Below, piece after piece: positions 4,707 through 47,753 of a stretch of 64,000 nt of DNA. The translations under genes were made by a program, and so were the position numbers. The DNA lies in the IMG/VR virus record IMGVR_UViG_3300042691_041718, positions 1 to 64,000 of that record; one strand, written 5' to 3'. Source of the stretch: a virus. How positions within the stretch are numbered: the first letter of the stretch is position 1; each line of letters starts with the position of its first letter. The notes beneath the pieces are model-generated. The model was not told where the DNA came from. It saw only the letters and a list, made by a program, of their open reading frames with translations, and did no database searches.

Positions 4707-5234
4707 ATGGAAGATAAAAAGATTGAAGTAGAGAGTATGAAAATTGATGATCAAAAAGTTGGTCTTGACTTAACTGGTAAGAATGAAGAAATTGTATTAG
4801 AAGATAATCCAAGACTACACGTTTCTCATTTAGAAGAACAATTAAAAGAATCAAATAATAATTATTTAAGATTAGCTGCTGAATTTGATAACTATAAAAA
4901 AAGAGTTATCAAAGAAAAAGAAGAATTAAGAAATAATACAAAAGTTTCTATGATTACTTCTATTTTGGATATGGACTCTGATATTTCTTTAGCAATCAAA
5001 AATATTAAAGATGATTCAGCTCGAGAAGGTGTTGAGTTAATCGCTTCTAAAATTGAAAAGTTTTTAAAAGGTCAAGGAATTGAAACTATTCAAACTGAAG
5101 AGTATGATACTGATTTACACGAAGTTATATCAATTTTACCAATTGGTGAAAAGAAAATTGTTGATGTTGTTAGTAAGGGATATACATTAGATGGTAAACC
5201 ATTTAGATATCCTAAAATCATATTAGGTGAATAA
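4707..5234 (+). CDS. grpE: Nucleotide exchange factor GrpE
   Basis: YLRLAAEFDNYKKR, YDTDLHEVI, VVSKGYTL motifs. Confidence 0.92.
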   Translation: MEDKKIEVESMKIDDQKVGLDLTGKNEEIVLEDNPRLHVSHLEEQLKESNNNYLRLAAEFDNYKKRVIKEKEELRNNTKVSMITSILDMDSDISLAIKNIKDDSAREGVELIASKIEKFLKGQGIETIQTEEYDTDLHEVISILPIGEKKIVDVVSKGYTLDGKPFRYPKIILGE

Positions 5235-5770
5235 TGAACTTACCAGTAAACAAAAAAAGCTTTATAGAATTATTACAACAAGACTTATATAAACAAAGTC
5301 TTGTTGATTCTATGCTTACTGGTGTTGATGATGAATTAAAATCAAATCTTAAATCTGATTTAGAATATGTTTTAGATAATAGAATTGAGGTTTTTAGTTT
5401 ATTATCTGGTAAAATTGGTGATGATGAGGATGAACTAGAAGTACTTATCATACCAGCCATTAGAAAAACTTGGTCTATGGTTTTTATAAACAAACCAACT
5501 TTATTTAATTTCTCGGAATATGGTGATAAAAAGCTAGAATTATTTCAACTATATTGGGATGTTGATGATTTTATCAACTATTTAGTTGACTTTCTACCAA
5601 AAATTAAAAATTGTTTAATAGAGTTTAAGTATTTAGATATGGGTATAGAAACTTTAAACTTAGTTTGTCAAAACTATATAAACAAAATGATTTCTAATTG
5701 TAGAAATAAAACATATGATGAAATTAAATTAGAGATAAGAGATTTGAAACTTAAAAAGACATTAAAATGA
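5234..5770 (+). CDS. Hypothetical protein with C-terminal RDxKL tag
   Basis: 178 aa, ends IRDLKLKKTLK. Confidence 0.7.
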   Translation: MNLPVNKKSFIELLQQDLYKQSLVDSMLTGVDDELKSNLKSDLEYVLDNRIEVFSLLSGKIGDDEDELEVLIIPAIRKTWSMVFINKPTLFNFSEYGDKKLELFQLYWDVDDFINYLVDFLPKIKNCLIEFKYLDMGIETLNLVCQNYINKMISNCRNKTYDEIKLEIRDLKLKKTLK

Positions 5771-6093
5771 ATTGGTATATCGAAAGTACTAGAACAGATA
5801 AAAACTATTTAAGAGTAGTTAATGAGACTGTTGGTGAAGTAATGGACTACTTTTGTGATGAGGTTAATAAAATAGATGAGGAAGAGTTTGATGAAGATAA
5901 AATCATTGAACTATGTAGAGATATTATGAATAAACTACCAATTTTAAGATTTCATACAAAAAAAGATTATAATTGGACTACTTATGAAAATGATTCATTT
6001 TGGTTTGATTATAATTCAAATACAAAAATAAGATTTAATGAACCTCTTAAATCTATTAAAAGAGACATATTACTAAATAATATATTAAAATAA
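5767..6093 (+). CDS. Hypothetical protein with C-terminal RDxxL tag
   Basis: 108 aa, ends KRDILLNNILK. Confidence 0.7.
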   Translation: MNWYIESTRTDKNYLRVVNETVGEVMDYFCDEVNKIDEEEFDEDKIIELCRDIMNKLPILRFHTKKDYNWTTYENDSFWFDYNSNTKIRFNEPLKSIKRDILLNNILK

Positions 6094-6105: not shown

Positions 6106-7176
6106 ATGAATAAAGACTATTATACTATTTTAGGAGTTAATAAAGGAGCAACTGATGATGAAATTAAAAAAGCTTATCGTAAGATGGCTATGCAGTTTCA
6201 TCCAGATAAAAATCCTAATAATCCAGAAGCAGAGGCTAAATTTAAAGAGGCGGCTGAAGCTTATGAAACTCTTAGCGATCCTTCTAAACGCCAGAGTTAT
6301 GATAGATTTGGTTCAACTGGTGGTAATCCATTTGGAGGAGGTAATCCATTTGGTGGTGGTCACGGATTTTCAATGGATGATATATTTTCACAGTTTGGTG
6401 ATATCTTTGGTGGTAATCCTTTTGGTGGAAGACAACAACAAAGACAAAGAACTAAAAAAGGTGGTGATTTAAGAATTAAAGTTGTTGTTAATATTGATGA
6501 GATACTTAAAGGAACAACTAAAAAATTAAAATACAGAAGACAAGTAAAATGTAATCCTTGTGATGGAAAAGGAGGTTCTGATGTAAGAGAATGTTTAGTT
6601 TGTAATGGAACAGGACAAAGAGTTGTTGTTCAAAATACACCATTTGGACAAGTAAGAACTCAAACACATTGTCCAGATTGTGGAGGTTCTGGTGAACAAA
6701 TTCACAATAAGTGTAATCATTGCCATGGAGATGGTACTACTTTACAAGAACAAGTAGTTGATATTCAAGTACCAGCAGGTGTTTCAAATGGAATGCAGTT
6801 GAAAATGAATGGTAATGGAAATGATGTTAGAAATGGAATACCAGGTGATCTTTTTATTATTATAGAAGAAGCTCAAGACTTCTCATTCAAAAGAGAAGGT
6901 AATAATATAGTTGTAGAAAAAACAATATCTGTTATAGATGCTCTTTGTGGTAATAATATAACTGTATCAACACCACATGGTGATATACCGGTTTTAGTTG
7001 AAGCTGGAACAGAACACGGGAAAACAATTAGAATTTCAGGTAAAGGTATTCCAGACTTAAATTATGGTTTAGGAGATCTTTATATAAAATTTAATTTGAA
7101 AATACCAAAAGATATTCCACTTGATGAAAGAATGATTTTAGAGAAGTTTAAAAACTCAAATACATTTAAAGTATGA
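6106..7176 (+). CDS. dnaJ: Chaperone DnaJ (type I)
   Basis: J-domain with HPD, G/F-rich linker, four CxxCxGxG repeats. Confidence 0.97.
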
Positions 7177-7346
7177 AAGTAGAAATAGTTGATGGTAAAT
7201 ATATTTTACACGGAGTTTTACAAAAATTTGATCGAATGAATAGGAATAATGGTAGAATATACCCAGATAATTTGTTCATTGAAGAATTGAGACGATGGAT
7301 AATTTCAAATAGACAATCTAAAATTAGAAAAATATATTCAAAATAA
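7173..7346 (+). CDS. 57-aa mini-protein resembling the N-terminus of T4 gp21-type prohead protease, plus C-terminal tag
   Basis: [57 protein letters not shown]; ATGA overlap with dnaJ; followed by terminator. Confidence 0.65.
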
Positions 7347-7374
7347 AAGAGAGAATTAAATTCTCTCTTTTTTT
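7346..7374. terminator. Bidirectional intrinsic terminator
   Basis: AAAAGAGAGAAT-TAA-ATTCTCTCTTTT between convergent genes. Confidence 0.8.
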
Positions 7375-7375
7375 A

Positions 7376-7552
7376 TTATACAAAGCTAACTTTGTGTTTA
7401 TCTTTTCTTGTATAGTTCTTAGCTGATTTATGAACTTTATGTTTAGCAACCCAACCAGTAGAGTTCTCTAATTCCATCTCTCTAGACGCTTTCTTATAAA
7501 CTGTTAAGATTTGCTCTTGTGTAATTTTTCCGATTTTAATTTTCCCTTTCAT
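7376..7552 (-). CDS. Small basic protein (58 aa)
   Basis: MKGKIKIGKITQEQILTVYKKASREMELENSTGWVAKHKVHKSAKNYTRKDKHKVSFV; TATATTTG promoter at 7580..7573. Confidence 0.7.
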   Translation of the reverse strand: MKGKIKIGKITQEQILTVYKKASREMELENSTGWVAKHKVHKSAKNYTRKDKHKVSFV

Positions 7553-7622: not shown

Positions 7623-8423
7623 ATGGCTGATTTAAACGGTTATGGTGATGAATATGTTCCTTACCAAGGTGGCTACACAATTGAAGAAATGGTTGATTTG
7701 GTTCAAACCGAGTTAACAATTGCGTGTGCTTTACCTAAAACTTTACCAGATGCTAGTGTTAGACAAATAATAGAAAATAGAGCTCTTCCTTATTTTTACA
7801 GATGGTACCAATACGCTGTACAGAAAATGTACTTCTTAATAAGAAAAGAAGCTTTCTTCACCGAAGAATTTACGAGTTATAGATATGTTGAAGTTCCATG
7901 TGAAATTCAGTCAGTTGCTTATCTTTATGAAGTACGAGGAGATAGTTTATTTCAATTAGGTATTAATACACCAAATTTATCAGTTAACTTAGGTGTTACA
8001 AATCAACCATATCTATCATCTTATGTAACAACTATTGGTGAATTAGGTTTATATAAAACTGTATTAGATAACATGAGTGATATGTTAAATCAGTTAAATA
8101 AATATACACTTAAACACCACTTCAATCACTTAAATCACAGAATACACATATTAACTGATGTTAAATATGATGTTGTTATGGAGGCTTATGCTAACATACC
8201 AAGAGAAAATTTATTTAAAGATGATCTTTTTTATAAGTATTGTGTTGGTTGGTCTAAAGTTATGTTGGGTAATATGGTTGGTCGTTATGATTTTCAACTT
8301 CCCGGTTCGATAAAAATAAATAGCGCAGATTTAATATCTCAAGGTAAAGAAGAAGTTAAAGAAGTGGAGGATGAAATCAAGGGTCAATCAAATTCCAGTT
8401 TCTTTTTTATGGTGAAGAAATAA
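7623..8423 (+). CDS. Neck protein, T4 gp13-like
   Basis: C-terminal LG..G.Y.FQLPGSIKIN..DLISQGKEE..EVEDEI pattern; late-type promoter upstream. Confidence 0.7.
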   Translation: MADLNGYGDEYVPYQGGYTIEEMVDLVQTELTIACALPKTLPDASVRQIIENRALPYFYRWYQYAVQKMYFLIRKEAFFTEEFTSYRYVEVPCEIQSVAYLYEVRGDSLFQLGINTPNLSVNLGVTNQPYLSSYVTTIGELGLYKTVLDNMSDMLNQLNKYTLKHHFNHLNHRIHILTDVKYDVVMEAYANIPRENLFKDDLFYKYCVGWSKVMLGNMVGRYDFQLPGSIKINSADLISQGKEEVKEVEDEIKGQSNSSFFFMVKK

Positions 8424-8476: not shown

Positions 8477-9378
8477 ATGGAAGAAATAAAATATACTATA
8501 TACAAGCTCATAGACCCAATATCTAATGAAATTAGATATATTGGATTAACATTTAATGATTTAAAACAAAGACTTAAATCTCATTATTCGGAAAACTCAA
8601 AATCTCATAAATCAAATTGGGTTAAAAGTTTAAAATTAAATGGTTTAAAACCTATAATTGAGTCAATTGAGGAGAATATATTATCATATAATGAGGTATG
8701 CGAAAGAGAAATATATTGGATTGATAAATTTAAAAGTGAGGGACATCCTCTGACAAATACGGACTCAGGTGGAAATAAGAATAAAAAAATGTCCGATGAA
8801 ACAAAGAAAAAAATGTCTGAATCACAGATTGAAAGGTATAAAAACTATAAACTTATTCTATCAGAGGAAACTAAGAAAGAATTGAGTATTAAAGCTAAAG
8901 AACGTTTTAGTAAAGAAGAAGAACGTGATAAATTAAGAATATCTAATAAAAGATATGAGGATTCTAAAACAGAAGAACAAAAGTTAAATGATATCTTAAT
9001 ACAAGACTGTAAATCGGTTTATCAGTATGATATTGATATGAATTTAATAAATATTTACCCCTCAATAAATAACGCTTCTAAAATAAATAACCTATCACAT
9101 GGCAATATATCAAAATGTTGTAAGAATAAAGTTAAAATGGTTGGTGGATATGTGTGGAGATTTGAAGGTGATCTAACACCGGTTAGTTTTAATAAAGGAG
9201 GTGATAAATTCAAACCGATATATCAATATGATTTAAATGGAAATTTCATAAAAGAGTATGAGAATATAAAGCAGCCTCTGTTGATTTGGGTATATTGACA
9301 CAGGGTATAAGAAGTGTTTGTACTGGTAAATCAAAATCTAGTGGTGGTTATATATGGAAATATAAATCTGATATTTAA
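8477..9378 (+). mobile_element. GIY-YIG homing endonuclease with NUMOD3/NUMOD1 domains; -1 frameshift near 9268
   Basis: TIYKL..IRYIG, EREIYWI, S.ETKKKMS; second NUMOD1 completes only in the shifted frame (AASVDLGILTQGIRSVCTGKSKSSGGYIWKY). Confidence 0.85.
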
Positions 9379-23929: not shown

Positions 23930-26059
23930 ATGGCTAAGATTTCAAAATATTTAAAATTAGATAAAGATATATTATTAGAATATATTTATAATGATGGTAA
24001 TCTTATAGCTGAGAAATATCAAATATTAATTGACTCAAGAGATAGAAGAAGATCATACGTTGGTGATCCAGATGGTGTTTCTGGTAATATACCATCAAAT
24101 CAACTTTTTAGATTAGATGCAATATCAGGTAAGTTTTCAGTAGTTGATACGACTTACTATTCATATTTACAATATAAAGACTATTCAGTTGGTATACCAG
24201 TCAGACATGATACAGTTAAAATTCATATTCCAGTAAACTGGACTTTCGGTGAGCATTTAGGTTTTTATATTAAAGTTTATACATTTGATAGAACAAATAC
24301 AATAAGTTTTGATTTATCAAATTTCTTTTTTGACATGACTAATACTAGTCAATCAAATTTACTAAATTATTCAGCACCACCACTTTATTTTCAAGAAAAA
24401 CTATGGGGTAAAAATATATCAATTGATATACCAGCTGTTAGTGAAGTTGCAGCTCAACTAACTGGAGAATATCCAAAAGAAAATAGTATTAATTTTAATT
24501 TAACGGATGGTATTGGTTTAAGCTCAACATCTCCAATTTTCATAGATTTTTACTTTGTTGATGGTATTGAGACGATTAATGGTAGAACAAATTATATTTT
24601 AGGAACTAAAGTTACGACAACTTTACCACAAACACCAGAATTTGAAAGATTAGGATTAAAAATTCAACACTCATCCGATGGTGATTATTTTGAAATATTT
24701 GGAACATATAATAATAATATTGCTGAGTTTAAAAAGTTTATTGATGATTCTGTAAGAGAAGGACGTAGATACTATGTTCAGTATGATATTATTACTTATG
24801 AGCAAAATATAAGAGGTAAAAAGACAACAGTTACTATAAATGATGGTTTTAACGAAACAGTTGATTATAGACCAATTATTAAATTCTCAACAACAACCGC
24901 AATTATAGATGTTGAAATGAGACTTATAGATTCAGTTGATGATTCGTTTATATTAAGAAGAGCTTCTTATGGTATGTTACAAGATGAAATAACCAAATAT
25001 AGCATACGTTTATCTAAAATAAATTTAGATAACGCATTAAAACCAAAAGTTTATAATATTAAAAATAATATAGATGCTGCTTTATTAGGGAATACTAACT
25101 CTTTAGGTAAATCAAATTCTGTATCTGGTAGAAATTTTGGAAAACAAATAGGTGTTGGATATAAAAATGGAATAGCTATAGGAAAAGCACTATTTTCTGG
25201 ATCAAATGGAACATTTAAAGATCTATTAGCTTTACAAAATCAAGGAAACAATATTAATAATACAAATGGTTTAGGAACCGGTACTGGAAACGGAACAGGC
25301 ACTGGTACAGGTGCTGGTACAGGTGCTGGTACAGGTGTTGGTACAGGTGCTGGTACAGGAACCGGAGCGGGTGGTTCTGGTAATCCAAATGGTGGTTATC
25401 CTAATGTAAACACAGGCGCTGGTGGTGCTGGTGGCGGAAACGGAGCGGGTCTTGGTGGAGGCGGTGGTGCTGGAAATGTACAAGTCCAAGAAGTAAAAGT
25501 ACCTTTTCCAGTTTTTGTTGATAGATTTAATATTATAGCAAAATCAGAAAACTCAATAGTTAATAGCACAACTTTCTATGGTATTGGAAAATTACAAGTA
25601 TTAATATATCCATTTGATAACATAATGAAGTTTGTTATTGCAAGTGGTGTTAGTACACAACCAGACTATTTAGATTTAACATCTTTTACAGAAGTTAAAA
25701 TGGTTATAAAAAATGATACATCATCACATGATTTTAAATTGATGACTGAATCAAAAGAAGTAAACTTAAAGTTAGGACAAGTTGTATTTAAAATACCTGA
25801 ATCTAAATTTTTAAATGTTAAAAAGATTTATGATGCTAAAGTAAATATTTTTTATATTGTTGGTACAACAGGTGCTAATAGTACAGTTATTTATACTGGA
25901 TTATTTAAAATTTACGACAGTCTTGATAATATTCAAATTCTTAATAATGAAGCTCCTAAGGCACCAGATATCATTAAAGATCCTAAGATGCCAAAAGAAA
26001 CTGCTATCGTTACTAGAAAGTTAATTTCAGGTCAAACAACACCTAATAAAAAACCATAA
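23930..26059 (+). CDS. Putative virion structural protein with Gly/Thr-rich linker
   Basis: 709 aa, beta-rich composition, late-type promoter, next to tail-tube-like gene. Confidence 0.55.
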   Translation: MAKISKYLKLDKDILLEYIYNDGNLIAEKYQILIDSRDRRRSYVGDPDGVSGNIPSNQLFRLDAISGKFSVVDTTYYSYLQYKDYSVGIPVRHDTVKIHIPVNWTFGEHLGFYIKVYTFDRTNTISFDLSNFFFDMTNTSQSNLLNYSAPPLYFQEKLWGKNISIDIPAVSEVAAQLTGEYPKENSINFNLTDGIGLSSTSPIFIDFYFVDGIETINGRTNYILGTKVTTTLPQTPEFERLGLKIQHSSDGDYFEIFGTYNNNIAEFKKFIDDSVREGRRYYVQYDIITYEQNIRGKKTTVTINDGFNETVDYRPIIKFSTTTAIIDVEMRLIDSVDDSFILRRASYGMLQDEITKYSIRLSKINLDNALKPKVYNIKNNIDAALLGNTNSLGKSNSVSGRNFGKQIGVGYKNGIAIGKALFSGSNGTFKDLLALQNQGNNINNTNGLGTGTGNGTGTGTGAGTGAGTGVGTGAGTGTGAGGSGNPNGGYPNVNTGAGGAGGGNGAGLGGGGGAGNVQVQEVKVPFPVFVDRFNIIAKSENSIVNSTTFYGIGKLQVLIYPFDNIMKFVIASGVSTQPDYLDLTSFTEVKMVIKNDTSSHDFKLMTESKEVNLKLGQVVFKIPESKFLNVKKIYDAKVNIFYIVGTTGANSTVIYTGLFKIYDSLDNIQILNNEAPKAPDIIKDPKMPKETAIVTRKLISGQTTPNKKP
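25304..25360 (+). repeat. 12-bp coding tandem repeat GGTACAGGTGCT (GTGA)n
   Basis: Four near-perfect units plus a partial unit. Confidence 0.9.
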
Positions 26060-26721: not shown

Positions 26722-26741
26722 TTAATTTAATCACCTTTTTT
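26710..26741. terminator. Bidirectional intrinsic terminator
   Basis: AAAAAAAGGTGATT..AATCACCTTTTTT. Confidence 0.8.
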
Positions 26742-26888
26742 GTATATTTTATTAATTTTATTTCTTCTACTCATTGTTACTTTTGGAAAAAGTCTAAATA
26801 GTTCATTCATAATTTCTTTATCAATAGACTTAGCTAATTCTTGAGAAAGTAACTTCGATAACTCATCACTGGGATTAAACTGTTTCAT
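26727..26888 (-). CDS. 53-aa mini-protein resembling a gp23-type major capsid segment, plus C-terminal tag
   Basis: MKQFNPSDELSKLLSQELAKSIDKEIMNELFRLFPKVTMSRRNKINKIYKKGD; start overlaps the end of 26875..27558. Confidence 0.6.
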   Translation of the reverse strand: MKQFNPSDELSKLLSQELAKSIDKEIMNELFRLFPKVTMSRRNKINKIYKKGD

Positions 26889-27558
26889 ATAATTCTCCTG
26901 GATATGGATTTTGGTAATGATCAACATCTGATGTATGAGCATTATAGTATTTTGATTCTGGTAATTGACAAACCCACATTTCACACATCATTCTCCATTT
27001 CAGATAATCATTATTAGGCATCCAAGTGATTGGATTACATAAATTTTTAATATGTGAAGATTTACTCCACCAAAAATTACCAGAATAATGTTTAGGGGCT
27101 TTACCATATCCCCAATACATAGGATGAAATTTGATATCTTCTGGATTACCTCTTAAATTAACACCAGTACAATCATTCTCTTTTAACTCTTCTAATCTAT
27201 CTTCCCATTTATTTATACTAAAATAAGATAAGTAATTAGTCCAATCCGTTATAAAAGGATGATTTCTACTTACTCCTTTTGTGTGTAAATAAAGAACATT
27301 GAAATCTTCGTCTTGTGAATGTTTCCAAATTAGATCTAAAGTTGGAAACTCATTATATGAAGTATCTTTATATTTATTCCAAATTTTATATTTAGGATCA
27401 TCTAAATTCACCTTTAATAAGTTTATATCACCATTAATGACTAAATTGATTACATCACAATTTTCGTATAAACTACTATCTTTAATTCTATTTAATAGGT
27501 TTGTCAAAACTTCATTAACAGAACCCATCACAGCAACATTTATATAAACTCTATTCAT
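26875..27558 (-). CDS. Glycosyltransferase-like protein
   Basis: VLYLHTKGVS, HYSGNFWW, E.W motifs; in glycan cluster. Confidence 0.6.
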   Translation of the reverse strand: MNRVYINVAVMGSVNEVLTNLLNRIKDSSLYENCDVINLVINGDINLLKVNLDDPKYKIWNKYKDTSYNEFPTLDLIWKHSQDEDFNVLYLHTKGVSRNHPFITDWTNYLSYFSINKWEDRLEELKENDCTGVNLRGNPEDIKFHPMYWGYGKAPKHYSGNFWWSKSSHIKNLCNPITWMPNNDYLKWRMMCEMWVCQLPESKYYNAHTSDVDHYQNPYPGELYETV

Positions 27559-35398: not shown

Positions 35399-37588
35399 TT
35401 ATTCATCTTTCTTTTTTCTTGTTCGTTTTGGTTTCTCAACCTTAACATCATCATTCTTTACTTCTGGTAGTAAATGTTCTTGTAACTCTTTAATTTCACT
35501 TGGTGTGTGGATAGGTTTAATAAAAGATTGTTCATCCTCTTTATTATAATCACATAAGAATTTTGTTCCTTCTTCTGGATTATTTTCAATAATATAATCA
35601 GTAATTATATCATCAACCCATCTTTGAATAGCTCTCTTTAAAGGTCTAGCACCAAATTTAGGATCATAACCAACTTCAACAAGATGATCTTTTAATTCAT
35701 CTGTGATTTCAATTGGGAAACCAATGTCAGATGCTCTCTTAATTGTTTTATTTAATTCTAAATCAACAATTTTCAAGATTTCATTTTTACCTAAATCTCT
35801 AAAGTAGATAATGTCATCTAATCTATTGATAAACTCAGGAGCAAATTTATTTTTCAACTCTTTATCTAAAATCGCCTTAATGTGTTCTTCATTTTGACTT
35901 TCTCTTGTTTTAGTAGAGAAACCAACTCCAGTACCAAAATCTTTAACTTGTCTTGTACCTACGTTAGAAGTCATTAAAATAATACAATTTTTAAAACTTA
36001 CTTTTCTACCGTGTGAATCAGTCATGTGACCATCATCTAACATTTGTAAGAATAAGTTAAATACCTCAGGATTTGCTTTTTCAATCTCATCAAAAAGAAT
36101 AACAGAATAAGGTTTTCTTCTAATTCTATCAAGAACGTTACTATCTTCATAACCAACATATCCTGGAGCTGAACCTTGAATTTTAGAAATTGAAATTTTA
36201 TCCATATATTCAGACATATCCAATCTAATTAAAGAGTCCTCAGAGTCAAATAGATATTTAGCGATTTGTTTAGCCAACTCAGTTTTACCAACACCAGAGT
36301 TACCAATCAACATACCACTGAATACAGGTCTGTTAGCATCTTTCATACCAACTCTACCTCTTTGAATAGCTCTAACTACTTTCTTAACAGCTTCATCTTG
36401 ACCAACTACTTTACCAGCAATTTCTTGACCCATTTTAGCAAGTCTATTGTTTTCCTTTTCACTTACTTTTTGTAAAGGAATACCTGTAATCATTGATACA
36501 ACCTCTGCTACATTATCCTCAGTTACAATTTGACGATTTTTAGATGATTCTTCTTCCCAGTTTTTTCTAGCCTTTTCCAAAGCATCGTTCAACTTTCTCT
36601 CAGTATCTCTTAATTTAGCAGCCTCTTCGTATTTTTGAGATCTGATAACATCATGTTTTTGATCCTTAATCTCCAATATTTTGTTTTCAATATCTGTAAT
36701 TTCTTTTGGAACAACAATATTTGAAATATGAACTCTTGATCCAGCTTCATCCATAGCATCAATAGCCTTATCTGGTAAAAATCTATCAGTCATATAACGA
36801 GAAGTTAAATCAACACAAGCCTTAATTGCTTCCGGTGTGTAAGTAACATTGTGATGTGACTCATATTTATCTTTAATATTACCAATGATAATCATTGTCT
36901 CTTCTGGAGTAGCAGGTTCAACTTGAACTTTTTGAAAACGTCTTTCTAACGCTCCATCTTTTTCAATGTGTTTTCTATACTCGTCTAAAGTAGTAGCACC
37001 AATGATTTGAATTTCACCTCTTGCTAAAGCTGGTTTAAACATATTGGAAGCATCCATTGATCCAGAAGCTCCACCAGCACCAATCATAGTATGAATTTCA
37101 TCAATGAAAAGGATGACATCAGGATTTTTTTCCATTTCAGCCATTAAAGCCTTAATTCTTTCCTCAAATTGTCCACGGTATTTAGTACCAGCGACCATAG
37201 ATGCTAAGTCAAGCATAACAACTCTTTTATTAAAAAGAAGTCTAGATACTTTTCTTTGAACAATTCTAAGTGCTAATCCTTCAGCAATTGAAGATTTACC
37301 AACACCTGGTTCACCAATTAAAATTGGATTGTTTTTCTTTCTACGAGAAAGAATTTGTGAAACTCTTTCAATTTCTTTTTCACGACCTACGATAGGGTCT
37401 AATCTACCCTCTTCAGCCATTTTAGTCAAATCACGACTATATGTATCTAAAACTGGAGTTTTAGATTTAGTATCAGATTTCTTAGAAGATGAAGAGAATG
37501 TCTTATCATCATCATCATCATCTTCAATAGCCATTCTCACATCAGGTAAGTTTTTGTAATACTGATTGTCTTTATTAGTTTTTCCCAT
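35399..37588 (-). CDS. clpC: ClpC-like AAA+ unfoldase lacking the N-terminal domain
   Basis: Two Walker A (GEPGVGKS, GNSGVGKT), FIDEIH, UVR middle domain, GVGF loop, FGARPLKR. Confidence 0.92.
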   Translation of the reverse strand: MGKTNKDNQYYKNLPDVRMAIEDDDDDDKTFSSSSKKSDTKSKTPVLDTYSRDLTKMAEEGRLDPIVGREKEIERVSQILSRRKKNNPILIGEPGVGKSSIAEGLALRIVQRKVSRLLFNKRVVMLDLASMVAGTKYRGQFEERIKALMAEMEKNPDVILFIDEIHTMIGAGGASGSMDASNMFKPALARGEIQIIGATTLDEYRKHIEKDGALERRFQKVQVEPATPEETMIIIGNIKDKYESHHNVTYTPEAIKACVDLTSRYMTDRFLPDKAIDAMDEAGSRVHISNIVVPKEITDIENKILEIKDQKHDVIRSQKYEEAAKLRDTERKLNDALEKARKNWEEESSKNRQIVTEDNVAEVVSMITGIPLQKVSEKENNRLAKMGQEIAGKVVGQDEAVKKVVRAIQRGRVGMKDANRPVFSGMLIGNSGVGKTELAKQIAKYLFDSEDSLIRLDMSEYMDKISISKIQGSAPGYVGYEDSNVLDRIRRKPYSVILFDEIEKANPEVFNLFLQMLDDGHMTDSHGRKVSFKNCIILMTSNVGTRQVKDFGTGVGFSTKTRESQNEEHIKAILDKELKNKFAPEFINRLDDIIYFRDLGKNEILKIVDLELNKTIKRASDIGFPIEITDELKDHLVEVGYDPKFGARPLKRAIQRWVDDIITDYIIENNPEEGTKFLCDYNKEDEQSFIKPIHTPSEIKELQEHLLPEVKNDDVKVEKPKRTRKKKDE

Positions 37589-40032: not shown

Positions 40033-40517
40033 TTTCTCATTATAGAGAATTTATCTTCTGGTTTAACTATATTAAGTTTTTCACAAGCCATCATAAAAGA
40101 GTCCATTATAGAATAAACATCTTCCATTTCTGTTACTTCATAATCTCTAATCTCCCAATTATCTTGATCGTCATCTTCAACATCTTTCAATATTAAAGTA
40201 ATAACATAAGTATCTTCTATAAAAGCTAATCCAGCTTGAGCATAAAAAGTCATACCTTGTACTGGTTTATATGAAGTTGCATAAAAAGCTACAAATCTAT
40301 CTCCATCATGATCGACTAACTGTGACTGAAACTTAGTTAGTATTGGATATTGAATTAAAACATTCTCAACTAATTTATCTGTATTCTCATCACCAGAACT
40401 TAAAGGTATTTTTGTAAAATTTTTAGAAATCTCTTTATCCATTTCTCCCTTTAAATAAGGTATTTCAAATCTTGATTTTAAATCTTCATCATCAAAAAAC
40501 TCAAAAAACTTTTTCAT
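40029..40517 (-). CDS. Hypothetical protein with CTS-like leader
   Basis: Starts MKKFFEFF. Confidence 0.65.
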   Translation of the reverse strand: MKKFFEFFDDEDLKSRFEIPYLKGEMDKEISKNFTKIPLSSGDENTDKLVENVLIQYPILTKFQSQLVDHDGDRFVAFYATSYKPVQGMTFYAQAGLAFIEDTYVITLILKDVEDDDQDNWEIRDYEVTEMEDVYSIMDSFMMACEKLNIVKPEDKFSIMRN

Positions 40518-42433
40518 TATATTTCTTTATTTTTTTCATCTAAATAATCTAAAAGATTATTGATTAAATTATCGGCTCTATCATAAAGTTCTTTATTCTT
40601 TAACTTATTAGCTACATAATAATTAATATTTTTATTTGTATAAAACGTTTCTATTAAATTATCAGGAACCCAAACTCCAGAATATTTAAGTTGCATTACG
40701 AATGGCATTACGACATTTTTGGCATTATTTGAAAAACCATCATCAAATACATCGGAATATGATTCTGGTAATTCTTTACCCTCATAATCATCAGCACCGT
40801 CATCACCATGTGCGTAAAATCCACCAACTTTACCTTCTAAATGATTTCTTAGAAGATTGTCATATTTACCAGACTTAGCGAACTTACCAGTAACTTCTGA
40901 TCTTTTAATATTATCAGAACCCATTAGTTTCTTGGCATCATCAATTGTAAGAGTTTGATTAACACTGACCAATCTATCAAAAAGAGTTTTAACTTGTGAT
41001 GATAAGGAGTGCCAGTGTATTGGAGAAAATACTAAAAAAGCATCAGCCTCTTGTAGTAATTCATAAACATTTAACTCTGAAAGTAAATCAGGTTCTTTCA
41101 TCCCTTTGAAATAACAACTACAAGGAAAGTGACAATTGTGAACTTCTATACCTTCACATATAAATTTATGTGATTTTGAAACAGATATATCATAAACATT
41201 TGATCTACCAATTTCTTCTATTTTTTCGACTTTACCATAATAGTCATAATTTTTAGATTTTCTATAAGAAATTTTTTTAAATTTATAATCCTTATTAAAT
41301 ATTCCTATTTTTTCCATAAAAATATTAGCATTAAGGCCACTTATAACTAACATAGATGCTCTTTTTATAAATTTATTAAACCTAAAAGTTTCTATATGAT
41401 CCAAATAGGTTATAGATGATTTTATACCAAATTTAGAAAGTAGCAATTGACAATCTCTTAAAGAATCTTTACTAACACTTGTTAGATTTATTTCATAATA
41501 ATCGTTTCCTCTATTATTTCTTTTAATAATTGATCCATCACTAGCAAACCAACCATTTAAAAAATTAGAAACTTGACTTTTTGATGAATTCATTATGGAT
41601 TCTGGAATTCTTCGATCATATATATTCTTGTTTTTTTCTTCAAATATAAGATTGTTGATAAATAAATTGGTTTCATTGTCATTAAATTTTATCCATTTAA
41701 CTTCGGTATTTTTTGATATAACTCCCTTCTCAGAAATTGAGATATTAAAATTATTAGATAGTTTTTCAATTAGAATTTCATCTCTTACATCATAACATAA
41801 TTTAAGTCTTTTATGATGAACCGCTCCATCTCCCCATAATAAGCCACATAAAAGATATTTATCTAAATTTGATTCATCTTCTTTAAATTCACCAGTAAAT
41901 TTAAATGGTATTCTATCACCGGTTTTTAGATTCTTAACATCGATCCATTCTTCAGTATATCCTTTTAGTTTTTTTTTATTATTATTTTTGTAAATAGGAT
42001 TTATTACTTTTATAGGATGATTATCAGTTAATTTTATTTTTCTTCCGTCGCTTGTTGTAACCTCATATATAATAGAATTATCACCGGTTTTCATAAAATT
42101 ATAAACGGTTCCGGTTGATAATTCATCTCCTATTAAGATATCTTCAATTTTTTTATATCCATATTTAGTCTCAACTCTCTCACCTTCTGCGATACAATGA
42201 AATCCGCCAGCAGTTGAAACACAACCCTTACAAGGTTGTATATTTGGTTTTTTAGATTTATTTACAGATAAATCAATAACTTTTATTTCTAAAAATGGAG
42301 ACCATTTTTCTATAACATACTCAATTACTTTGTGAGTTTTTGATTCCATATTAGGACAAGTATCAGGATCTCTAGGTGATCCTTGAAAAATCAATACTTT
42401 CCATTTTTTATCTCCGAGTTTTCTTATCTTCAT
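40517..42433 (-). CDS. NAD(P)H-dependent FMN reductase / iron-sulfur flavoprotein family, intein-containing
   Basis: FQGSPR, CKGC..C..C.C, ADAFLVFSPIHW..S...K.LFDRL. Confidence 0.85.
   Translation of the reverse strand: MKIRKLGDKKWKVLIFQGSPRDPDTCPNMESKTHKVIEYVIEKWSPFLEIKVIDLSVNKSKKPNIQPCKGCVSTAGGFHCIAEGERVETKYGYKKIEDILIGDELSTGTVYNFMKTGDNSIIYEVTTSDGRKIKLTDNHPIKVINPIYKNNNKKKLKGYTEEWIDVKNLKTGDRIPFKFTGEFKEDESNLDKYLLCGLLWGDGAVHHKRLKLCYDVRDEILIEKLSNNFNISISEKGVISKNTEVKWIKFNDNETNLFINNLIFEEKNKNIYDRRIPESIMNSSKSQVSNFLNGWFASDGSIIKRNNRGNDYYEINLTSVSKDSLRDCQLLLSKFGIKSSITYLDHIETFRFNKFIKRASMLVISGLNANIFMEKIGIFNKDYKFKKISYRKSKNYDYYGKVEKIEEIGRSNVYDISVSKSHKFICEGIEVHNCHFPCSCYFKGMKEPDLLSELNVYELLQEADAFLVFSPIHWHSLSSQVKTLFDRLVSVNQTLTIDDAKKLMGSDNIKRSEVTGKFAKSGKYDNLLRNHLEGKVGGFYAHGDDGADDYEGKELPESYSDVFDDGFSNNAKNVVMPFVMQLKYSGVWVPDNLIETFYTNKNINYYVANKLKNKELYDRADNLINNLLDYLDEKNKEI
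41135..42196 (-). mobile_element. Intein (354 aa) with LAGLIDADG homing endonuclease
   Basis: N-terminus CIAEGERV, block B TDNHP, LCGLLWGDG and FLNGWFASDG, block F VYDISV, C-terminus VHN then +1 Cys. Confidence 0.95.
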
Positions 42434-47501: not shown

Positions 47502-47753
47502 TTAATCTAATAATTTATTAATTTTATCATCTCTTTCTTGTCTTTTTTCGTATAATTCTATTTCTTTTATGTTAAGTCTATACCACATTTTAAAATCTGA
47601 TATGTAATAAACAAATTCATCCTCACCAGAGGAATCGTCTTTGTAACAAGTTGATCCAAACATGAATTCTTGAAAGCTTTTGTAAAACTCTCTAGGAATT
47701 TCTGATTCTCTTACATCGTATTTGTTATTGTATATTTCAGTTAGTGTTCTCAT
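47502..47753 (-). CDS. Hypothetical protein with C-terminal RDxKI tag
   Basis: ERDDKINKLLD. Confidence 0.7.
   Translation of the reverse strand: MRTLTEIYNNKYDVRESEIPREFYKSFQEFMFGSTCYKDDSSGEDEFVYYISDFKMWYRLNIKEIELYEKRQERDDKINKLLD

Follow-up and report, generated by a model that had tools for sequence, protein, structure and literature searches.

The window, by which we mean the whole stretch of DNA analysed, comprises the first 64 kb of an IMG/VR virus record of 186,465 bp that is estimated to be 69% complete and comes from a huge uncultured T4-like phage. Its plus strand carries, in this order, grpE (4707..5234; Pfam GrpE), two conserved ORFs of 178 and 108 aa (5234..5770 and 5767..6093), dnaJ (6106..7176) and the gene of a 57-aa mini-protein (7173..7346, stop codon included), followed by a convergent 58-aa ORF on the minus strand (7376..7552) and a plus-strand gene for a T4 gp13-type neck protein (7623..8423). 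The dnaJ gene is complete, with the Pfam domains DnaJ, DnaJ_CXXCXGXG and DnaJ_C. The neck protein, assigned through PF26809 (Phage_T4_gp13) on an orthologue and through phrog_211, forms the downstream border of a variable slot between dnaJ and gp13. Both ORFs between grpE and dnaJ have tag-like ends, and their orthologues in the related locus L016 end in IRDLKLKRTIKQ and YRDSKIKQILA.

The mini-protein gene is an intact ORF according to both the ORF list and the sequence, and identical or related proteins of 57-61 aa are found on other contigs. Its start codon shares the four nucleotides ATGA (7173..7176, +) with the stop codon of dnaJ, as read from the sequence, an arrangement that implies translational coupling; L001-L004, L011 and L012 retain this 4-nt overlap. 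A terminator scan places a bidirectional terminator-like hairpin, with a 12-bp stem and T-runs, on both strands at 7345..7371, where it overlaps the TAA stop of the mini-protein gene and separates it from the convergent ORF. The first-pass annotation had described an intact 57-aa ORF that is coupled to dnaJ by an ATGA overlap, closed by a terminator and ends in RQSKIRKIY; all of this holds, the tail reading R47-Q-S-K50-I51-R-K-I54-Y55 with S-K after it. The convergent 58-aa ORF contains GWVAKHKVHKSAKNYTRKDKHK and has no family match in Pfam or PHROG. It is present in the window, L001-L004, L011 and L028 and absent from L016, and in several lineages it co-occurs with tagged mini-proteins in the dnaJ-gp13 slot and is missing where the slot is empty.

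Directly after gp13 lies a 273-aa ORF (8477..9298, +) whose N-terminus resembles, by eye, a GIY-YIG homing endonuclease (IRYIGLT), and a 637-aa ORF (40517..42433, -) contains an intein (Intein_splicing and LAGLIDADG_3) that interrupts a flavodoxin/FMN-reductase-like protein. The window also encodes a ClpB/ClpC-type double AAA+ unfoldase (35399..37588, -; Pfam AAA_2, AAA_lid_9, ClpB_D2-small and UVR) of 728 aa, with a UVR motif and apparently without the usual N-domain, which by its context is a candidate reader of the C-terminal tag described below. Together with an HSP70 gene just upstream in the relative L011, grpE, dnaJ and this unfoldase give the lineage a near-complete chaperone set.

Relationship to prohead proteases

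The first-pass annotation had pointed to a motif at the start of T4 gp21-type proteases, and this resemblance proved to be real. In BLASTP, mini-protein residues 7-42 (7191..7298, +), which cover the second strand of a hairpin, the NRNNGRIYP loop and the start of a helix, align with a 204-aa full-length protease from the IMG/VR scan (L007:2923-3534, which has GELDHP and SSRG) at 38 bits, E 8e-10 and 44% identity. A profile of 24 mini-family members compared by hhalign with a profile of five proteases, T4 gp21 included, gave a probability of 97.1% and an E of 5.5e-11 over 42 columns that fall on positions 12-55 of the protease profile, so that a profile match to gp21, on whose presence the earlier reading had depended, was found. 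T4 gp21 (PDB 5JBL) was also the top match of the mini-family profile among 177,635 PDB sequences (E 0.07), and 13 of the 24 members matched phrog_207, the head maturation protease family (best E 1e-4).

Single comparisons were weaker. The window mini-protein alone matched phrog_207 at E 0.09 and, in a seven-sequence comparison, T4 gp21 at E 0.11, and it had no Pfam match, the gathering score of PF03420 not being reached; 4/24 family members matched PF03420 weakly (best E 0.021). When it was searched by tblastn against 50,697 phage records, the matches were individually weak, and almost all of those listed were annotated prohead protease genes. No longer relatives turned up in a word-index search; full-length proteases were connected to the mini-protein through IMG/VR and the genomes of relatives.

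The copied part corresponds to about residues 40-70 of T4 gp21, where a short first strand precedes strand LYIEGIFMQAEV, loop NRNKRLYP and helix KRILEKAVKDYI. Similarity stops at mini-protein residue 42, about 15 residues short of the equivalent of the catalytic His, and the remaining 15 residues make up the tag. Both the catalytic His (T4 His85, in GELNHP) and the catalytic Ser (Ser140, in SSRG) lie beyond the copied part and have no counterpart in the mini-protein, in agreement with the first-pass annotation, which had noted that both were lacking. An AF2 model built from the family alignment has strands at residues 2-6 and 9-13 and a helix at 32-56, with a mean pLDDT of 85 overall and of 89, 95 and 92 for residues 31-40, 41-50 and 51-57; when this model was used for a fold search, nothing meaningful came up in the PDB, as one would expect of a fold that consists of a hairpin and a helix. 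What the gene encodes is the first structural module of an S77 protease (hairpin, NRNxGRxYP loop and helix 1), standing alone and non-catalytic, and the mini-protein cannot cleave anything. It is homologous to part of an S77 protease but, lacking the catalytic His and Ser, does not belong to the enzyme family.

With gp13 as bait, 25 related IMG/VR loci were collected, on records of up to 476 kb. PF03420 matched an ORF of 699-720 aa in three near-complete relatives, and the mini-family profile found the N-terminus of a long protease ORF in a fourth. The protease of this lineage is thus a protease-scaffold fusion of 690-720 aa with an intact N-terminus (KDYILGGTFTEFGVKNRNERIYT, GEFDHP, SSRAAG), followed by long coiled-coil repeats. 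We also observed that the fusions at L054-L057 (G001 to G004) contain many YSEY[LI]AENLDKNI repeats and an acidic His-rich stretch, and that IQEDKL in their C-terminal region bears a faint likeness to the core of the tag. Since the lineage protease keeps its own N-terminal module, the mini-protein is an extra copy and not a missing or split-off part. A split protease, with the mini-protein supplying the absent N-terminus, was rejected, as the fusions of all four relatives keep the module together with the catalytic His and Ser.

The phage's own protease was not found in the 186-kb, 69%-complete record with PF03420, phrog_207 or the T4 gp20 to gp24 proteins; the sole Pfam Gp23 match in the record is a sibling mini-protein (26793-26885). 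The 709-aa ORF at 23930..26059 is not the protease either. The window mini-protein scored 27-37 bits against canonical T4-like proteases of about 200 aa and 24-28 bits against the four lineage fusions, with no alignment to T4 gp21 itself in the same comparison. These scores give a weak hint that foreign proteases may be the target of the mini-protein.

Conservation and distribution of the mini-protein family

An exhaustive HMMER search at E<=1e-3 yielded 26 cluster representatives, all but one of them 48-72 aa long, and nearly all keep the protease motif, a short linker and a tail of the form RxxKIxxI[FYW]. Both halves are retained down to about 40% identity, and a word-index search found four relatives of 57-61 aa at 75-98% identity. 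The exception, the 742-aa protein P0013, was left out, since all six of its matches fall on GR[SI]YPD repeats and we judge this repeat protein to be unrelated. Across the family R28 is invariant, and G14, F19, G27, I29, Y30, R47, K50 and I51 are at least 90% conserved; the residues that are invariant in proteases (G, N-x-N, R-x-Y-P) are the nearly invariant positions of the mini-proteins as well. Inspection of the alignment showed no conservation across the family of a gp21 cleavage site (L/I-x-E). The nearest neighbours in the ESM Atlas were many viral clusters of 58-81 aa, of which some bear the label Peptidase_S77 in between a third and a half of the members, and others YonD_N (PF27290) in a similar share.

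All indels among the homologues are in frame and the homologous loci are intact. The view that the gene is a deliberate fragment rather than debris is therefore supported by a family of 48-72 aa proteins in which motif and tail persist at about 40% identity and no indel breaks the frame, and the frameshifts and neutral decay that would have spoken against it were not seen. The dN/dS comparison proposed along with that view agreed in part: among the three closest lineages, pairwise values were below 1, but weakly so (0.35-0.75, Fisher p 0.016 to 0.5), and the 0.75 between the two closest lineages is not significantly below 1. The neighbouring genes (dnaJ and the two upstream ORFs) gave 0.07-0.18, with 0.11-0.18 for the two ORFs, so that the mini-protein gene is either under weak recent constraint or fast-evolving, and it is from the deep conservation of its family that selection is argued. 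In the comparison of the window with L001, the mini-protein gene had a dS of 0.16 compared with 0.48-0.79 in three upstream genes (about 30 synonymous sites, a small sample), which could reflect a recent exchange between lineages or constraint at the nucleotide level.

True mini-proteins of this kind occur in the window, in the close L001 and L011 lineages, where they occupy the same place after dnaJ, and in G001 (385 kb) and G013. Only one of six near-complete relatives has one, and G002 to G005 and G010 have none. None of the 14 related loci with dnaJ upstream of gp13 carries this mini-protein between the two genes (in L016, dnaJ is directly followed by gp13), and distant family members are located among unrelated small genes. 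A constant partnership of mini-protein and dnaJ as a general rule was accordingly rejected. The mini-protein gene is a conserved accessory gene that is mobile within genomes, and, as most near-complete relatives do without it, head assembly does not require it.

The C-terminal tag and mini-proteins copying other core proteins

The tag covers residues 46-57 (7308..7343, +), is continuous with the helix and is supported by family conservation and by its enrichment at C-termini. In our own gene calls on the record (233 genes), the pattern R-x-x-[KR]-[IL]-x-x-[ILM]-[LYWFIG], which the mini-protein tail matches, lies no more than 8 residues from the C-terminus in 19 genes (about 8%) and occurs six times elsewhere in the proteins. 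The number expected at C-termini is 0.2 from the internal density and 0.17 +/- 0.43 after shuffling the last 30 residues, an enrichment of about 80-fold. The tail of the mini-protein is a 10-residue basic amphipathic sequence, R-x-x-K-I-x-K-I-Y, and a variant of a tag borne by about 8% of the phage's proteins. In the AF2 model R47, K50, I51, I54 and Y55, at positions i, i+3, i+4, i+7 and i+8, lie on one face of a helix, and the tag is predicted to be helical as an unbroken continuation of protease helix 1. Most other carriers have an acidic residue in the tag.

Inspection of the tagged genes of the record revealed no consistent protease cleavage site before the tags, and Pfam and PHROG gave no structural annotation for the tagged proteins. 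One of them, an 82-aa protein (47502..47753, -), weakly matches RegA over residues 45-82 (PF01818 E 0.007; phrog_242 E 0.012) and may be another tagged fragment copy.

A narrower form of the tail, K[IL]x[KRNE]I[YWF], is common to five mini-ORFs of the record, the protease mini-protein among them. Another, with the tail SRRNKINKIY (26727..26942, -), copies a helix piece of the major capsid protein (Pfam Gp23 positions 166-197, E 0.006-0.008). The remaining three sit beyond the window in the same record, and two of these we take, by eye, to copy polymerase motif B and the terminase Walker A. The protease mini-protein has the make-up by which we define the whole class, namely a piece of a core protein followed by a KIxKI[YWF] tail in about 45-70 aa, and the capsid, portal and tail-fibre pieces among its siblings are backed by Pfam or PHROG matches.

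Similar arrangements were observed in relatives. In G001 (L043:1347-1861, -), three mini-proteins overlap in tandem with the protease piece in the middle; the first matches Pfam Gp23 positions 222-259 (E 0.012), the third matches Portal_T4 388-427 (E 0.009), and each ends in IRKxKIK[KR]xF. In G013 (L058:1326-1659, +), the protease piece follows a mini-protein that has the same tail and, as judged by eye, the same capsid motif. These tandem clusters adjoin NusG-like and dCMP-deaminase genes, and in G001 an HNH-like gene as well; the arrangement in L013, near a NusG-like and an HNH-like gene, is related. In the 476-kb relative G003, a different 59-aa mini-protein (L028:2577-2756, +) is ATGA-coupled after dnaJ; it combines a tail-fibre-like motif (Pfam DUF2793 E 3.6e-4, with a weak PHROG tail-fibre match) with the tail KRKKKIKRLFK, which suggests that the head group in this slot has been swapped while tail and position were kept.

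Possible functions of the mini-protein

Several known systems share features with the mini-protein. T4 gp21 (MEROPS S77, PF03420, 5JBL) and the lineage fusions have the same N-terminal module with the same invariant residues, whereas the mini-protein is without the equivalents of His85 and Ser140, the propeptide and the rest of the fold, and carries a tag that the proteases lack. T4 Inh (226 aa, annotated in AF158101 as a gp21 inhibitor) is likewise phage-encoded and is annotated as acting on the head protease, but it has no sequence relation to the mini-protein and differs in size and architecture; in the tblastn search, run with an E limit of 10, the matches listed in T4-type records were protease genes and none came under inh.

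Parallels outside phage heads are offered by microProteins, or dominant-negative truncated paralogues. Among these, LITTLE ZIPPER proteins of plants and Id proteins of animals are examples. Like the mini-protein they are a small single module taken from a larger protein with its active part missing, and competitive binding would be expected from them; unlike them, the mini-protein is a phage protein with a proteome-wide C-terminal tag and belongs to a set that copies several core proteins, and its binding to the parent is putative. Short C-terminal address peptides are known from the tail by which SspB is tethered to ClpX, from the cargo-loading peptides of encapsulins and from the coat-binding C-terminal helix of the P22 scaffold. 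Like them, the tag is about 10 residues long, sits at the very end of proteins that are unrelated to one another and is predicted to be a helix with one conserved face, but it shares no sequence similarity with them.

The module itself is already registered in databases through the small Peptidase_S77 and YonD_N clusters of the ESM Atlas, for which we found no functional description. Our literature search returned no paper on free-standing mini-proteins from a protease N-terminus or on the tag, and only unrelated papers on YonD. No published description of this type of gene was found, and the C-terminally tagged small proteins of this phage group form an undescribed class.

The first-pass annotation had suggested an assembly modulator, an inhibitor of competing phage heads or a decoy for host sensors, candidates among which the sequence data do not discriminate. 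The reading that we favour, with a probability of about 35%, is that the mini-protein is a tag-addressed competitive mimic that may act on head maturation, be it that of its own phage or that of a co-infecting T4-like phage. It would act by binding: the protease-derived part would occupy the normal contacts of the module, with the rest of the protease subunit or with partners in the prohead core, and the tag would dock the mini-protein on a reader common to the other tagged proteins. As a whole it would behave as a 'microprotein' of the phage that holds up or prevents head maturation, its target being either the phage's own heads, as a matter of timing, or those of co-infecting T4-like phages. 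We consider this reading the most likely because the residues that define the module are kept and the tandem siblings are all derived from head-assembly proteins. The protease pieces of G001 and G013 lie beside capsid pieces, and in G001 also beside a portal piece, all with the same tail, so that the common theme is head assembly. Conservation of the protease-invariant residues is also what would be expected if the mini-protein must still be recognised as the module.

Some observations weigh against a mimic. The copied segment is part of the core fold of the protease and is not known to be an interface. Judged by eye, siblings copy the Walker A of the terminase and motif B of the polymerase, neither of which is an obvious interaction surface; the principle shared by the set may therefore differ from competition for an interface. 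Moreover, purifying selection among close relatives is weak, and the mini-protein is missing from most near-complete relatives.

These last properties, an accessory and patchy distribution in a hypervariable slot and a dN/dS above that of the neighbours, would suit an anti-defence decoy, which we consider unlikely. In this role the mini-protein would show an immune sensor of the host, or one that responds to protease activity, a conserved part of the head protease, and would either block the sensor directly or hand it over to the reader of the tag. Capsid, portal and terminase proteins are sensed by known defences, and it is pieces of capsid, portal and (by eye) terminase that the siblings copy; on the other hand, we know of no defence system that recognises the copied segment of the protease. 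A 36-residue piece of a core fold is also unlikely to reproduce a three-dimensional epitope. Prohead proteases themselves have been reported to trigger CBASS by cleaving loops of CD-NTases (PMC12991175), but what CBASS senses in that report is proteolytic activity, and the mini-protein has none.

Two lineages have a mini-protein coupled to dnaJ with different head groups (a protease piece here, the tail-fibre/DUF2793 piece in L028), and this is the main argument for a chaperone or unfoldase client mimic or adaptor, a function that we likewise consider unlikely. The tag would dock on the phage Hsp70 system (DnaK/DnaJ/GrpE) or on a ClpB/ClpC-type unfoldase, and the fragment would imitate the exposed core of an unfolded client, thereby regulating, titrating or redirecting the machine; the CIII protein of lambda, a competitive substrate of FtsH, offers a parallel. 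The two conserved ORFs with tag-like ends between grpE and dnaJ, the HSP70 gene of L011 and the unfoldase in the window would all fit, as would the fact that the copied segments are the most conserved and largely buried motifs of their parent proteins. However, neither the distant family members nor those of G001 and G013 lie beside dnaJ. Classical DnaK-binding peptides are extended, unlike the tag with its predicted helix and, in most other carriers, its acidic residue.

By analogy with encapsulin cargo-loading peptides or with the C-terminal helix by which scaffolding proteins bind the coat, the tag might instead be a capsid-targeting cargo label and the mini-protein simply be packed into the prohead. 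A short basic amphipathic helix at the C-terminus of many unrelated small proteins would be compatible with such a label, and so would the head-assembly theme of the tandem mini-proteins; with no consistent protease cleavage site before the tags and no structural annotation among the tagged proteins, we rate this as quite improbable. That the gene is what is left of a duplicated protease gene in decay, or an ORF that arose by chance, is very improbable, for although its absence from most relatives and the dN/dS of 0.75 between the two closest lineages would allow it, this is contradicted by the conservation of the family, with intact ORFs of 48-72 aa in 26 cluster representatives, motif and tail kept to about 40% identity and in-frame indels throughout, as well as by the gene's own start, coupling and terminator and by the recurrence of the same architecture for other parent proteins.

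Taking the mini-protein together with its siblings, we tentatively propose that huge T4-like phages possess an undescribed system of mini-proteins, in which short, strongly conserved segments of core proteins, from the head protease, capsid and portal to terminase, polymerase and tail fibre, would each be made as a mini-protein, joined to a common helical address tag and served by one reader machine, which may be an unfoldase, a chaperone or the prohead. Within such a system the protease mini-protein might poison or retime head maturation, for example that of co-infecting T4-like phages, or blind a host sensor.

Even taken as annotation alone, these results name a widespread family of 'hypothetical' phage proteins of 50-70 aa and say where it comes from. 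The mini-protein is small enough to be synthesised and tested directly. If it is indeed a tag-addressed mimic, it would represent the viral regulation or sabotage of capsid maturation by a 36-residue piece of a protease, and would open one way into the whole set of tagged fragment genes and to the C-terminal address tag used across the proteome.
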